Source: Clostridiales bacterium
Lineage (GTDB): Bacteria; Bacillota; Clostridia; Christensenellales; JAISNN01
Length of the DNA: 64,000 bases
NCBI GenBank assembly: GCA_031276195.1
Contig: JAISNN010000077.1
Span: 5,165-69,164 of the forward strand
Direction of reading: 5' to 3'
Shown here piece after piece: positions 4,382 to 41,702 of the stretch. Made by a program: the position numbers and the translations under genes. The notes beneath the pieces are model-generated. The model was not told where the DNA came from and did not search any database. It saw nothing but the letters and a program-made list of their open reading frames with translations. Position 1 is the first letter of the stretch; each line of letters begins with the position of its first letter.

Positions 4382-4552
4382 TAAATTTTTCCTTATAGAA
4401 TTCTTTTTTTAATTCCCAACGATTACGCTTTTTTGTCTGATTTTTTTTAGAATTCCCAACGATTTTGTTTTTTCTTTATCGATTTCTTTTTCCGATAGTT
4501 TTAAAATTATGCGATAAAGCGGTAGTTACCGTAAATTCCATTCCTTATATTC

Positions 4553-37249: not shown

Positions 37250-37545
37250 TTTTTTTCAAATATATAGCGGCATTCCGAAAAATAAAACCGTAAATAACTA
37301 AATACTTAACTTTTATCTTAATTTCCGTATCCACCGTATCTCAATTCCGCATTCCGAAAAACAAAACCGTAAATAACTAAATACTTAACTTTTATTTTAA
37401 TTTCCGTATCCACCGTATCTCAATTCCGTATTCTAAAAAACAAAACCGTAACCGACTAAATATTTAAATTTTATCTTAATTTCCGTATCCACCGTATCTC
37501 AATTCCGTATTCCGAAAAACAAAACCGTAACCGACTCAAAACTCT
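37250..37545. repeat. about 62-bp tandem repeat x4 upstream of pta
   Basis: unit AATTTCCGTATCCACCGTATCTCAATTCCGTATTCCGAAAAACAAAACCGTAA.TAACTAAATACTTAACTTTTAT. Confidence 0.8.
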
Positions 37546-37833
37546 AACCGTTATATTATAAACCAAAGAGGAAAATAAATAAAGTAAATTTAAGCCGATT
37601 AACCAAAAAAACAAAAAAAATCACGCGGCAATCCGATCCCGAACCGCCGCGCAAAAAAAATCACATTAAAAAAATTTCAAAAACTTCCGCGCTCCGCAAA
37701 AAATCCCGATTAAATCAAATGGTACAAAAATTACAACTAACATCGGACGGCGTAAAAATTACGACTAAAATCGTACAATGCAAAATTCCCCTCTCGTTAA
37801 GAGAATACCAAATTGGCGTGGCAACAGACTATT

Positions 37834-37870
37834 CCCCTCCGTGGGAGGGGATCAAAGGGGTGGGGCGACC
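37834..37870. repeat. short palindromic interspersed element
   Basis: ATTCCCCTCCGTGGGAGGGGATCAAAGGGGTGGGGCGACCGATT. Confidence 0.85.
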
Positions 37871-37884
37871 GATTAAAAATTATT

Positions 37885-38238
37885 TTATTTCTTTATTTCC
37901 ACTATGCAATACTTTTTCTGGTTATAAGGATAACCGCCCGCAAACGTAAGTCGTCCTTTTTCTTTTGCATTCTTAGTTAATTGCACTTGAAACTTTTTAC
38001 CGTTTGCGGAAAAAGATGATTTATTATCCTTTTCCCTGTTTGTTGCAATATTTGCAATTTGTATGTTTTCGTACGTATCCTTGCCGCCGTTTGATAACGG
38101 CTGTATATGATCGATATTCCAGCCGTACGGCGAATTCTCGTTTCCGTACTCGCTTTTGTGAATTTCGCGTCCCGCGAAATCATACGCTATCTGCTTATTT
38201 CCAAAGTCCTTTTCCCACAAATATATTTCATTCGACAT
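37885..38238 (-). CDS. small HNH-family endonuclease
   Basis: 117 aa; NIDHIQPLSNGGKDTYENIQIANIATN = HNH/His-Me finger core (DH...P...GG....N); RBS GGAGGA; low-GC gene. Confidence 0.7.
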   Translation of the reverse strand: MSNEIYLWEKDFGNKQIAYDFAGREIHKSEYGNENSPYGWNIDHIQPLSNGGKDTYENIQIANIATNREKDNKSSFSANGKKFQVQLTKNAKEKGRLTFAGGYPYNQKKYCIVEIKK

Positions 38239-38405
38239 AAATATGTCCTCCGTTAGTTTTTTTCGGCAATGCCGTCAATCTTTTATTTTTTTATTTCCGC
38301 TATGCAATACTTTTTACTTGAATAGTCATATCCGCCCTTCCGCCCGCCGCCGTCTTTAACTACGGCGGTTTTTAGTACGGATTAAAGTTTAGCGAATATC
38401 TTTTG

Positions 38406-38963
38406 TTATTCTTTTGCTTTCGCAAAGAATGTCGCTCTGCTGTCGTTTACCGTTTGCTTTTTTATTTCTTCCAGATCCGTTATTTTTTGGTATCTAATTC
38501 TCAGTTGTCCGGCGTATTCTTGTTCGGCTTGCGCGTATTTTTCTTGATATTCTTTTTTATATGTATCGTATTTATAGTATGCTATTATTTTATACGCTAT
38601 TAGACTTAACGATATTATTACCGGGTACACCGTTATATTTGAACTCATGGCCGATGTTATGACTATCGCGGAAATCATTATAATTATTAAGACGTTTATT
38701 AGTTTTGTTTTGGGTTTTTCTTTCATTTCTTCAAATTGAAATAATATCGTTGTGTTTTTCAGTTTATTTATTTGTTCTTGTGTGTTTTCATATTGTATTT
38801 GATATTTTAGCAAATCACCGTAAACCGGGTTTTGCGTTTCTCTTGATAAGGCTATCCCTTTTTCAGTTACGGACAGCAACTCCCATCCGAAACTTTCATA
38901 ATCATATATGATTTGTTGCTTATCTTCTTTCTGACATTCTATCAATTTCGATTCTCTTGACAT
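38406..38963 (-). CDS. hypothetical membrane protein (2 TM helices, coiled-coil tail), co-oriented immediately upstream of the HNH gene
   Basis: 185 aa; cytoplasmic N-domain, TM helices LINVLIIIMISAIVITSAM and VYPVIISLSLIAYKIIAYY, charged C-terminal coiled coil; very AT-rich. Confidence 0.6.
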   Translation of the reverse strand: MSRESKLIECQKEDKQQIIYDYESFGWELLSVTEKGIALSRETQNPVYGDLLKYQIQYENTQEQINKLKNTTILFQFEEMKEKPKTKLINVLIIIMISAIVITSAMSSNITVYPVIISLSLIAYKIIAYYKYDTYKKEYQEKYAQAEQEYAGQLRIRYQKITDLEEIKKQTVNDSRATFFAKAKE

Positions 38964-39193
38964 ATATTATATGTACTCCTTTTTGCTTTTTTTCGGCAAT
39001 CCCCCACAATACTTTATTTTTTTAGTACCATTACCGTATTATGTATTCATATTAACATAACTTTCAATATGATGTCAACTATTTTACATACCATACCTTG
39101 AAATAATTATAATTATATCATTTTACCAATTTTCATAACTGTATAGCGGAAGCCTTTTTGCTCTATAATTTTAGTGTCGATAAGGGAGGCGTT

Positions 39194-39502
39194 ATGGAAC
39201 TTGACGAATTGATTCACAGAATAGGCGTATTGCGCGCCCGCGCAAACCTTTCCGCGCGCGCTTTGAGCCTGAAAATCAATATGAACGAATGCTATATCAA
39301 CCGCTTGGAAAACAATAAAACAAAGTTCGAGCCGTCTCTCGGCACGCTTTTTTCGATCATCGAGGCTTGCGATTCGACGCCCGAAGAATTCTTTTATCAC
39401 AATATAAACGAATTTAAAATCGACAAACAAACCATAGACCTCTTGAAAAAACTCTCTCACGAACAAAAAGAAGCCCTTATGACACTGTTAAAAAATAAAT
39501 GA
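39194..39502 (+). CDS. XRE-family helix-turn-helix transcriptional regulator
   Basis: start moved to ATG 39194 (MELDELIHRIGVLRARANLSARALSLKINMNECYINRLEN) with AGGGAGG RBS; classic HTH_3 pattern; divergent from the membrane-protein/HNH pair. Confidence 0.75.
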   Translation: MELDELIHRIGVLRARANLSARALSLKINMNECYINRLENNKTKFEPSLGTLFSIIEACDSTPEEFFYHNINEFKIDKQTIDLLKKLSHEQKEALMTLLKNK

Positions 39503-39538
39503 CAACAAAACAATAAATTTCAACGAATATAAAATATG

Positions 39539-39596
39539 CGGCGGAAAACTTTTTTTAAAAAAACTTTTCCGCCGCATTCTTTATTTAACATTCTCT
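39539..39596 (+). terminator. palindromic terminator element (GCGGCGGAAAACTTTTTTTAAAAAAACTTTTCCGCCGC)
   Basis: perfect long inverted repeat with AT-rich centre after the XRE gene; member of the GGGAAAACTTTTT family. Confidence 0.55.
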
Positions 39597-39613: not shown

Positions 39614-40981
39614 CTACTTTATATTCCCGAACGCGTCGCGCACCGCGTAATACGACGGTTTGGGGTTGCCGTTCCGGTCGACTATTCCCCAGCGCGTTTC
39701 GGTGGGGCAATCCTCGAAGCCGCAGACGTAGCAGCGATCGGAGTCGCTCCAACAATACAAGAACTCCCCGATGATATACGGATTTTTCGCCAGCCGCGGA
39801 ATCATATCCGCATAGAATTTCGCCTGTCCCTCGGGGGTATGCGGATAATTTTTTAGTACGACGTCGGCGGGCAGTTCGCGGTAGAGGTGATTGCGCATAA
39901 TATCGCTGAAAAGATAGCCCGCGGGGTCGCCGTTCGCGCCTTTTTTGATATCGTTTTGGAAATTTTCGGGCAATTTTTTGACAAAATTTTCGATATCGGC
40001 TTTCGCCTCCGCCTCGGAATTATAGCCGTATCCGCGAAGGATTTCCAGCCTTTCCTCCTCGGTTTTCGGCATTCCGCCGCCGATATAGCCGAATTCGCAT
40101 ATGATGACGGGCAGACCGGTAAAACTCCAAAGAAACGCCGGAATGAAGTCGTAAATTTCGATTCTGTTCATAATCGAAGGACCGCTGAAACAGCCGGCGT
40201 AGATATCGACGCCTATATAGTCGCAGTATTTATGATAGGGTTTCATCGCGCCGTGGTGGTCGGGCTGAGGGCCGGCGGAATTGTAGCCCGTTATGATATC
40301 GCCCTTATAAGGCGCGACCGCTTCGAGTTGAATGCCCATAAAGCGCACCGCCTGTTCCGTGTTTTCGAGCGGATACATAAAGCGCGCGACGCCTAACTCG
40401 TTCGTGATTTGGAGCCCTTCGATGACGTCTTTTAAATCTTGGATCAAAAACACCGCGACCTCTTTTATCGCCTTTTCGCTGTTCGGATCGCGCGGATCTA
40501 TACCTTCAAAATCCAAAAAATCTTCCGGATACGGCGTAACCGCAAAAATCTTTATGCCGTTTTCGGCGTATTCTTGCATTTCGGCTTTCCAGCCCGTATA
40601 CTCCTCTCTGACAATCCGGTTTCCGCCGGCGTCTTTTTCGAAAGGATACGGTATGTCGGCGCGGTTCCATTCGATTCCCGCGCCTTTGATGAGTTCGTAG
40701 TCTTCGTCCGGGTGGCAAATCCCCTTGATAAATCCGCCCGCCTTGGTCTTAGCCGCCGAAACCGCCCCGTTCGTCTTTGGCTTGAAAGGATAGGACAGGA
40801 GCGAAAACGGAACGTAACGTATTATGGGCCAAATTTGCGCGCGCACCATCGGGTCGTCGATCCCGTTGATAAAACCGGTCAAGGCGGCCGCACCTCCCCC
40901 GAACAACGTAACGATGATAATCAAAGTTATCAACAATTTTTTTAAAACCTTGCGCGGTTTTTTCGCCTTATTTTTTGCCAT
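39614..40981 (-). CDS. membrane-anchored glycoside hydrolase (TIM-barrel, clan GH-A-like)
   Basis: 455 aa; N-terminal TM anchor; ITNELG (acid/base NE) and ICEFGY (nucleophile E) motifs spaced as in clan GH-A families (GH5/GH113-like). Confidence 0.55.
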   Translation of the reverse strand: MAKNKAKKPRKVLKKLLITLIIIVTLFGGGAAALTGFINGIDDPMVRAQIWPIIRYVPFSLLSYPFKPKTNGAVSAAKTKAGGFIKGICHPDEDYELIKGAGIEWNRADIPYPFEKDAGGNRIVREEYTGWKAEMQEYAENGIKIFAVTPYPEDFLDFEGIDPRDPNSEKAIKEVAVFLIQDLKDVIEGLQITNELGVARFMYPLENTEQAVRFMGIQLEAVAPYKGDIITGYNSAGPQPDHHGAMKPYHKYCDYIGVDIYAGCFSGPSIMNRIEIYDFIPAFLWSFTGLPVIICEFGYIGGGMPKTEEERLEILRGYGYNSEAEAKADIENFVKKLPENFQNDIKKGANGDPAGYLFSDIMRNHLYRELPADVVLKNYPHTPEGQAKFYADMIPRLAKNPYIIGEFLYCWSDSDRCYVCGFEDCPTETRWGIVDRNGNPKPSYYAVRDAFGNIK

Positions 40982-41394
40982 TGAACAATTCCTCCCTCTT
41001 TAAATTTATCGCTTTACGGCTCTTTTGACGGTTAATAAAATTCTATCAATTTAAAATTCCGCTTTGCGGTTCCCGTATGTTTGCGAAAACGTTCATCGTT
41101 TAAAATTCCGCTTTACGGCTCTTTTATCGTTTACCGTAACGTTCCGTCTTTTAAAATTTATCGATTGAAATTCTTACGGCTTTTAAATCTCCTCTTTTAT
41201 TCTTTACGCTTATTCATTTTAAATTCACAATTACATTATATTGCATAAGAAAGCCAAAGTCAATAGGTTTTGAAAAAATAAATCATAAAATATATGACGG
41301 ATTAAAAGTTTAATTACGGTTCTACACTTTTCCCAAAATTATTGAAAGTTTTTGAAAAAAAGCGGAAATAAGTAAAATACCTTTTTAGTGCGCG

Positions 41395-41528
41395 GATTTT
41401 TCAGATAAAAAACGGCTTATTTTTGAGGGCAATAGCGTTCGCTATTGCCAAAAACACAAGAACGATTACAAAAATACTAACCCTTTCGCCCCACCCCTAC
41501 ACCCCTCCCACGGAGGGGAATTCTTTAC
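41395..41528. repeat. composite interspersed element in inverted orientation (CAATAGCGTTCGCTATTG palindrome module + CGCCCCACCCC..CCCTCCCACGGAGGGG)
   Basis: revcomp gives CCCCTCCGTGGGAGGGGTGTAGGGGTGGGGCGA followed by GGCAATAGCGAACGCTATTGCC, homologous to the internal module of the 61505 and 63419 long elements. Confidence 0.75.
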
Positions 41529-41659: not shown

Positions 41660-41702
41660 ATGGGGGCGGGGGAAAACTTTTTTCAAAAAGTTTTCCCCCG
41701 CA
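41660..41702 (-). terminator. palindromic terminator element after the ABC exporter genes
   Basis: GGGGGCGGGGGAAAACTTTTTTCAAAAAGTTTTCCCCCGC perfect inverted repeat. Confidence 0.5.

Follow-up and report, generated by a model that had tools for sequence, protein, structure and literature searches.

Do the three genes at 37.9-39.5 kb of the window, which encode a regulator of the XRE family, a small membrane protein and a minimal HNH nuclease, form a single defence system, or do they merely stand side by side? The window is the whole stretch of DNA analysed, 64 kb from a Clostridiales bacterium (contig JAISNN010000077.1), and a preliminary description of it had proposed that this AT-rich segment holds a phage-defence or abortive-infection-like module made up of all three genes. 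The reading favoured here, to which a probability of about 60% is given, is that the patch is horizontally acquired DNA with two separate units, and not one three-gene system. The first would be a small XRE repressor divergent from a membrane-anchored protein of an 'MSRES' family, a pair that recurs across gut Clostridia; the second would be an orphan HNH nuclease.

A compositionally foreign patch with three intact genes

The patch comprises three intact open reading frames (ORFs) at 37885-39502, and their positions agree with the layout first described: an HNH gene (37885-38238, minus strand) for a protein of 117 amino acids (aa), a gap of 167 bp, the gene for the 185-aa membrane protein (38406-38963, minus strand), and the divergent XRE gene (39195-39502, plus strand). 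Proteins identical to those of the window are already on record as LBP62_07210 and as an 'HNH endonuclease', from a Clostridiales metagenome-assembled genome (MAG).

The GC content and the GC content at third codon positions (GC3) were 0.323 and 0.317 for the membrane gene and 0.379 and 0.424 for the HNH gene, and the GC content of the XRE region was ~0.40. The 36 ORFs of ≥150 aa in the window averaged 0.50 for GC (standard deviation 0.04) and 0.61 for GC3 (standard deviation 0.07). AT-rich intergenic DNA is found everywhere in this genome, but in the patch it is the coding GC itself that deviates. Since the coding GC (0.32-0.40 against 0.50) and the GC3 (0.317 for the membrane gene) are far below those of the window's larger ORFs, the three genes are compositionally foreign, and the AT-richness and shift in codon usage reported earlier were borne out.

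An undescribed family of membrane proteins

The 185-aa protein is a two-transmembrane (two-TM) variant of an undescribed Firmicutes family, whose members are membrane proteins of ~150 aa. Its AlphaFold2 (AF2) model (predicted local distance difference test score, pLDDT, 91.3; predicted template-modelling score, pTM, 0.73) contains an N-terminal beta-alpha-beta-beta domain (strand 3-9, helix 12-23, strands 28-32 and 36-42), followed by a helix at 48-70, a hydrophobic helix at 88-105 and a long C-terminal helix at 113-183 with a hydrophobic start. The architecture described from the letters alone, namely an N-domain, two TM helices and a long C-terminal helix, agrees with this model.

A search of 5.8 billion proteins with the 185-aa sequence returned 156 matches, and when 1.84 billion representatives were searched exhaustively with a profile, 220 clusters were found at E≤1e-3, nearly all of 130-200 aa. 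The family alignment has 23 invariant positions, mostly N-terminal, where the sequence MSRES..YESFGWELL..SRETQNPVY..YE is invariant; further on come a hydrophobic segment, in which one proline is near-invariant, and the motif SRATFF(S/A)K at the C-terminus. Conservation of the N-domain is very strong across Clostridia and Acholeplasmatales. In the window's protein a second TM helix is present and the tail is longer; P0002, P0142, P0170 and P0184 are similar variants. As the family includes both one-segment members (with the central proline) and two-TM members, both conserved ends of the protein probably face the cytoplasm. One member, P0142 (locus L144, 1809-2963), has 384 aa; its two-TM core is extended by one more TM helix and by a presumably extracellular domain of ~150 aa at the C-terminus.

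No model of Pfam, NCBIfam, PHROGs or PADLOC described the 185-aa protein or 23 of its relatives, and within these libraries the protein has no family. EcsB, DUF3522 and PycTM were rejected as its identity, their matches being sub-threshold and compositional. Fold and sequence searches of the PDB with the membrane protein returned generic helical hairpins only, and no similarity of the family to any characterised envelope family was found. Nor was the family detected in phage, plasmid or viral collections: no PHROG matched at E<0.05, tblastn yielded no match in INPHARED phages or PLSDB plasmids, and IMG/VR held no relatives. Its distribution is patchy, with 23 hits in 185,579 species-representative genomes, a lower bound obtained with two peptide patterns. 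The GC content of the membrane gene tracks that of the host from 0.23 to 0.63, usually with a modest deficit; the deficit in the window (-0.18) is the largest among the 30 loci compared below.

The XRE gene is the only conserved partner of the membrane gene

Synteny was compared in 30 distinct loci of the membrane family, in which all ORFs were scanned with hidden Markov models of the family, of its XRE neighbours and of the HNH protein. A small XRE gene (69-118 aa) was divergent from the membrane gene and 50-250 bp upstream of it in 17 of the 30 loci, and the adjacent pairs were divergent without exception (17/17). Three further loci had an XRE gene at ≤800 bp with one gene between, while 10 loci, mostly from Acholeplasmatales or Bacilli MAGs, had none. 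A relative of the HNH gene, on the other hand, was near the membrane-family gene in none of the other loci (0/29), the window being the sole case, and a membrane-family gene accompanied none of the HNH-ORF hits in the loci of the HNH family (0/94).

The flanking genes of the membrane family vary between genomes and are mostly housekeeping genes (efp/rplU, nrdR/spoIIE, thrS, lepA/hemN, blaI/blaR, tilS/cca); chromosomal position is not conserved, and the XRE gene is the sole conserved partner. By this recurrence, the genetic link between XRE and the membrane protein is real. The neighbourhood in the window is housekeeping as well, with pta/ackA on one side and, on the other, a gene of normal GC for a 455-aa protein and, after it, ABC exporters.

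A conserved promoter with candidate operators precedes the membrane gene

The XRE protein matches HTH_3 (PF01381) at residues 25-78 with 28.4 bits against a cut-off of 23. That this gene is divergent and encodes a helix-turn-helix (HTH) protein of the XRE type was recognised from the outset; its start, however, is most likely not the TTG at 39158 that opens the longest ORF (39158-39502, 114 aa) but the ATG at 39195, which follows GGGAGG and gives a protein of 102 aa. The product would be a small repressor without a sensor domain.

Two overlapping sigma-70-like promoter sequences for the membrane gene are predicted at 39038-39078 (minus strand): P1 (TTGACA-N18-TAATAT, with an upstream TG) and P2 (TTGAAA-N18-CATAAT). 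A TGAATACAT box at 39041-39049, within the spacer and -10 region of P2, is the only copy in the 64 kb and occupies the same position in related loci. Back to back with P1 is a promoter-like site for the XRE gene (TTTACA-N16-AATTAT, 39083-39120, plus strand), overlapped by the 22-bp palindrome TGAAATAATTATAATTATATCA. Direct repeats GGTA(T/AT)GGTA lie on either side of the promoters, at 39027-39036 and 39090-39098; these repeats and the palindrome are candidate operators.

Conservation of this region was most evident in six loci with an XRE subtype of 78-85 aa, in which a stretch of 40 nt (GAAYACATATG-TTGACA-AWTGAATACATTTGTGT-TATAAT) was 95-100% identical, while the membrane proteins of the same loci were 45-56% identical and their third codon positions 37-48% identical. 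The stretch is a consensus promoter in which the GAAYACATWTGT box is directly repeated, once over the -35 element and once over the spacer. As a near-invariant promoter-operator (GAAYACATATGTTGACAAWTGAATACATTTGTGTTATAAT) it was found ~30-90 nt upstream of the family gene in L004, L007, L008, L010, L012, L019 and L034, in species whose genes have reached saturation at third codon positions; the promoter of L034 is near-identical but falls outside the exact pattern behind the count of six. Loci with other XRE subtypes have different repeated boxes at the same position. The 40-nt element thus has the appearance of a ready-made operator for the 78-85-aa subtype, and its 95-100% identity alongside proteins that are only ~50% identical leads us to infer that the membrane gene is under tight repression by XRE.

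The HNH gene is an orphan with a relic beside it

The gene at 37885-38238, preceded by a ribosome-binding site (GGAGG, 7 nt upstream), encodes a stand-alone HNH protein of the H-N-N type. It passed the Pfam gathering cut-offs of both PF01844 (28.2 bits against 21.4) and PF13395 (HNH_4; 23.1 against 22). The preliminary description had asked whether a core with Asn in place of the second His is sound; no variation was seen at D43, H44, N58 and N67, nor at E69 and K70, among 15 relatives or among the 3 closest ones, and because of the invariance of the first four the D-H...N...N core is intact and looks active. The AF2 model of this protein, by which a beta-beta-alpha-metal fold would be judged, was poor (mean pLDDT 52.6, with residues 42-73 below 50) and was not used.

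A profile search returned 178 relatives with three architectures: solo proteins of 110-118 aa, forms of ~213 aa, and forms of ~315 aa with a C-terminal extension. The ~213-aa relatives (P0265, P0266, P0271, P0276, P0281; L039 5001-5642) are fused tandem internal duplications. Their N-half aligns with the window's HNH at E=1e-23 and is degenerate, with EY for DH and ANALR for TNxEK, and the Pfam match is confined to the C-half; from their sequences, these forms would be pseudo-dimers with one active site. Since the family includes such fused pseudo-dimers, the solo protein probably works as a homodimer.

Across the 94 HNH-ORF hits no constant neighbour of the HNH family was found; neighbours vary throughout, and relatives are free-standing in varied contexts, as is the annotated homologue of Mycoplasmopsis cynos. 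The two closest homologues are on short contigs and gave no gene context. No intron, intein or phage context was seen for HNH relatives in the inspected loci.

The nuclease gene had also been described as bracketed by 38-bp direct repeats. A repeat does exist, although it extends over 57 nt at 79% identity (37883-37939 and 38281-38337) and does not bracket the gene as an insertion would: the first copy coincides with the coding sequence at the 3′ end of the HNH gene itself, and the second corresponds to a relic of the 3′ end of another HNH-family gene (38283-38337, minus strand), located in the gap after the membrane gene. The relic encodes, in frame, GGYDYSSKKYCIAEIKK*, the conserved C-terminal tail of the HNH subfamily; this peptide resembles the tails of P0122 and P0283 more closely than that of the resident gene. 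A target-site duplication around the HNH gene was rejected on these grounds, one repeat copy being coding and the other a gene relic; the marks of a homing or mobile HNH endonuclease (insertion in or next to a conserved target gene, an intron or intein context, or a flanking target duplication) were likewise not found, given the free-standing relatives and the origin of the 'bracketing' repeat in a gene end and a paralogue relic. The relic of a second HNH-family copy just upstream of the HNH gene shows local gene turnover and is no footprint of an insertion.

One module or two units

In the module first proposed, infection would derepress both a nuclease and a membrane protein that serves as effector or sensor. 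The foreign composition of the patch and the intact catalytic core of the HNH protein suit such a system, and so do several further observations, which count at the same time against dividing the patch into two units. No clear minus-strand terminator separates the membrane and HNH genes: the GC-rich hairpin between them (38346-38369) has a T-run on the plus strand only, and the first convincing terminator downstream of the pair is a strong intrinsic-terminator-like hairpin, with 15 pairs and a T-run, at 37621-37654 (minus strand). In addition, the 5′ untranslated region of the membrane gene (38987-39028, minus strand) is similar to a leader of ~42 nt upstream of the HNH gene (38257-38297, minus strand) that contains ATTGCCGAAAAAAA; exactly two exact copies of ATTGCCGAAAAAAA exist in the window, one ahead of each minus-strand gene. 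Given these similar leaders and the lack of a clear intervening terminator, read-through from the membrane-gene promoter into the HNH gene, and hence joint expression, is plausible. The motif was absent from all 143 other fetched loci, a comparison that gave no explanation for it. The closest relative of the membrane protein, the two-TM protein P0002 of another Clostridiales MAG, is encoded in locus L001 (3857-6106; L002 and L009 are the same locus), where XRE is followed by a DUF2726 membrane protein, then by the family gene and finally by ParE with a small ORF; DUF2726 is a Pfam family which we take to be related to restriction-endonuclease-like nucleases. This cluster adjoins Rep_1, Viral_Rep and Zot genes, which suggests that it resides in an integrated rolling-circle or inovirus-like element, and it is the sole exception to the non-mobile, non-defence context of the family. 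In locus L041 (89-1320) an HNH relative of 56% identity begins 12 bp after the gene for a 289-aa XRE-membrane fusion protein, which joins an XRE HTH to about five TM helices and also has a Cys-rich stretch resembling a zinc ribbon. The sample has limits too: many membrane-family loci come from short metagenomic contigs, and the two-TM subclade was inspected at three loci (the window, L001 and L144).

What decides against the three-gene module is its failure to recur. The conserved synteny of the membrane and HNH genes, on which the preliminary description had beforehand made its proposal depend, was absent from both sets of loci given above, and therefore the defence reading is not supported. 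The third two-TM relative, in L144, lies between tilS and cca with a divergent small HTH ORF of the XRE type and no nuclease. The supposed defence-island location did not materialise either, the neighbours being mostly housekeeping genes in the window and in the inspected loci, with L001 alone departing from this, and the membrane family was absent from the viral, phage and plasmid collections. PADLOC-DB v2 gave no system match, only weak matches to generic domains (the HNH region of Cas9 at E 1e-4, PycTM over the TM segment at E 3e-3, and HTH models). In the literature searched, no system was described that combines an HNH protein, a TM protein and an XRE regulator. Taken together, these data make a single inducible module quite unlikely. 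Equally unlikely is a looser arrangement in which the XRE and MSRES genes would form an undescribed, tightly repressed conditional effector module of gut Firmicutes (causing, for example, growth arrest or abortive infection from the membrane), and in which the two-TM subclade, when on foreign DNA, would recruit interchangeable nucleases, HNH here and DUF2726 in L001; if so, the window would be one instance of a system of membrane protein, nuclease and repressor.

Two other explanations were considered for the XRE/membrane pair itself. It might be a toxin-antitoxin (TA)-like or addiction cassette, or else an immunity switch left behind by a decayed prophage, with the HNH gene as the remnant of a homing-type nuclease. 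A small, sensor-less repressor beside a near-consensus, operator-covered promoter would be in keeping with this, as would the occurrence of the pair at different chromosomal sites in different genomes, the gene GC mildly below that of the flanks in many loci, and the turnover attested by the relic of a second HNH copy. Yet the genes are divergent in all 17 adjacent pairs, whereas those of type II TA systems are co-transcribed in one operon; most loci have no integrase or phage genes nearby, and there are no phage or viral homologues; Acholeplasmatales and Bacilli members do without XRE; the HNH relatives lack an intron, intein or phage context; and the gene GC follows that of the host over the range 0.23-0.63, suggesting long residence. 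We therefore regard this origin as quite improbable. The amelioration to host GC would suit an ordinary envelope or stress-response accessory factor with a local repressor, in which case the low GC in the window would reflect a foreign allele that replaced the resident copy, and the HNH gene would be unrelated cargo. The wide distribution, the housekeeping neighbours and the very strong conservation of the N-domain in Clostridia and Acholeplasmatales also favour such a factor; against it stand the lack of conserved chromosomal position, with XRE as the only conserved partner, the lack of similarity to a characterised envelope family, and the patchiness of the family in species-representative genomes (23/185,579, a lower bound). 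This last explanation overlaps with the favoured one, from which it differs only in naming a physiological role, and as such it seems unlikely.

The explanation that we favour, two separate units on acquired DNA, would operate as follows. XRE would bind the repeated boxes that overlap the strong sigma-A promoter, keeping the membrane protein silent until a signal inactivates the repressor; the protein, made only upon derepression, would be anchored in the membrane and use its highly conserved N-domain there to act on a cellular partner that is itself conserved. The HNH gene of the D-H...N...N type would have been placed here by local gene turnover, as the relic of an earlier copy just upstream suggests, and transcripts from the membrane-gene promoter may extend into it in this genome.

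Comparison with known systems

Small repressors of the XRE/Cro-CI type control a divergent target through operators that overlap its promoter, as in phage immunity switches and in Xre and ImmR of Bacillus. The region in the window resembles them in its divergent, back-to-back promoters, in the boxes over the -35, spacer and -10 positions and in the HTH_3 domain. It differs in that the target is a single membrane protein and not a lytic or excision operon, in that most loci have no phage or integrative and conjugative element genes nearby, and in that no ImmA-type protease or antirepressor is evident. The arrangement is thus of a known kind, in which an XRE repressor has its target locally in a divergent gene, but it is built around an undescribed effector family. 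Short, HTH-only XRE proteins coupled to a small membrane protein are also known from Firmicutes, where YozG-type HTH proteins pair with DUF2975, DUF2178 and DUF3169; those pairs are co-directional operons with multi-pass proteins, whereas here the genes are divergent and the membrane protein has a folded, soluble N-domain. No significant Pfam match to DUF2975, DUF2178 or DUF3169 was obtained in 23 members of the membrane family.

We know of no established function for DUF4177 (PF13783), a family with which the N-domain of the membrane protein shares the order of its secondary-structure elements and a similar GWEL(V/L)S motif. The beta-alpha-beta-beta order of DUF4177 proteins is documented (PMC11322243). 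None of the 23 members matched PF13783 at E≤1. In two loci of the Acholeplasmatales type, without XRE, the next gene after that of the family encodes a DUF4177-like protein of 56-61 aa (L014 518-688, L016 4469-4654); the best Pfam score of these neighbours was 23.6 bits, just below the cut-off of 25. A relationship to DUF4177 was set aside as not significant (hhalign probability of 5% against the DUF4177-like neighbour), the suggestive topology and motif being kept as a lead only.

The HNH protein resembles Cas9/IscB/McrA-type HNH domains (PF13395, PF01844), which are nuclease domains of the beta-beta-alpha-metal type, in its motif DHIxPxSxGG...N...TNxEK, with Asn for the last His, and its best sequence matches in PADLOC, NCBIfam and the PDB were the HNH domains of Cas9, Cas9d, IscB and Cas8f-HNH. 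These matches cover ~35-65 residues and are far below family cut-offs (21 bits against 175 for IscB), and membership of the Cas9, IscB or Cas8f-HNH families was rejected. Unlike Cas9 and IscB, the protein has 117 aa, without RuvC, guide-RNA machinery, zinc-binding Cys pairs or a recognisable DNA-binding domain. PacI is a minimal, dimeric HNH restriction enzyme. The window's HNH is likewise very small and would need to dimerise to cut both strands, an idea supported by the 213-aa pseudo-dimers; it differs from PacI in lacking zinc-binding cysteines and an adjacent methyltransferase, here and in the inspected relatives, and no sequence similarity to PacI was detected.

Repeats and hairpins around the patch

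The preliminary description had considered the patch to be bounded by palindromes at 37834 and 41496. Palindromes are indeed present, at 37834 and 41502, but they are copies of a dispersed 38-nt element resembling repetitive extragenic palindromic (REP) sequences, ATTCCCCTCCGYGGGAGGGG-N3-5-GGGGTGGGGCGA, and mark no boundary. The window contains nine copies against zero expected by chance, at 4552, 37834 (37831-37870), 41502, 53388, 53489, 53613, 61522, 61994 and 63427. The copy at 41502 is 2 kb beyond the patch, past a gene of normal GC. As dispersed repeats they were rejected as borders of a mobile island. The three copies at 53.4-53.6 kb are spaced ~100-125 bp apart.

The right edge of the patch is marked by a palindromic hairpin with 28-nt arms at 39529-39584, where the XRE gene and the 455-aa gene converge; it is likely a bidirectional terminator. 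It has a core in common with the terminator-like hairpin at 41666-41701, GCGG(C/G)GGAAAACTTTTTT (92% over 24 nt), so that these terminator sequences themselves appear to be repeated. The 455-aa protein (39614-40981, minus strand) has an N-terminal TM anchor, and no match to it was found in Pfam, NCBIfam, PHROGs or PADLOC; a 49-bp tandem repeat of 2.4 copies occupies the upstream region of its gene (41010-41126). On the other side of the patch, the long AT-rich region upstream of pta contains a 79-bp tandem repeat (37270-37530; 3.3 copies, 92% matches). As each 79-bp unit bears a promoter-like TTGAGA-N18-TAAGAT/TAAAAT on the pta strand, pta may be under a triplicated promoter. An Rfam scan of 36.9-41.8 kb returned nothing credible.

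Implications

For the patch as a whole, the favoured reading means that a regulator, a membrane effector and a nuclease which look plausible as a set are neighbours by chance, and on synteny grounds they make no defence candidate. The HNH family, which comprises solo proteins, fused pseudo-dimers and extended proteins, adds modestly to the minimal HNH nucleases already catalogued. The membrane protein leads further: the outcome is a clearly defined protein family of ~220 clusters without a model in the four libraries searched, and the recurrent, dedicated repressor with its unusually conserved promoter-operator provides a direct experimental handle on the function of this protein.

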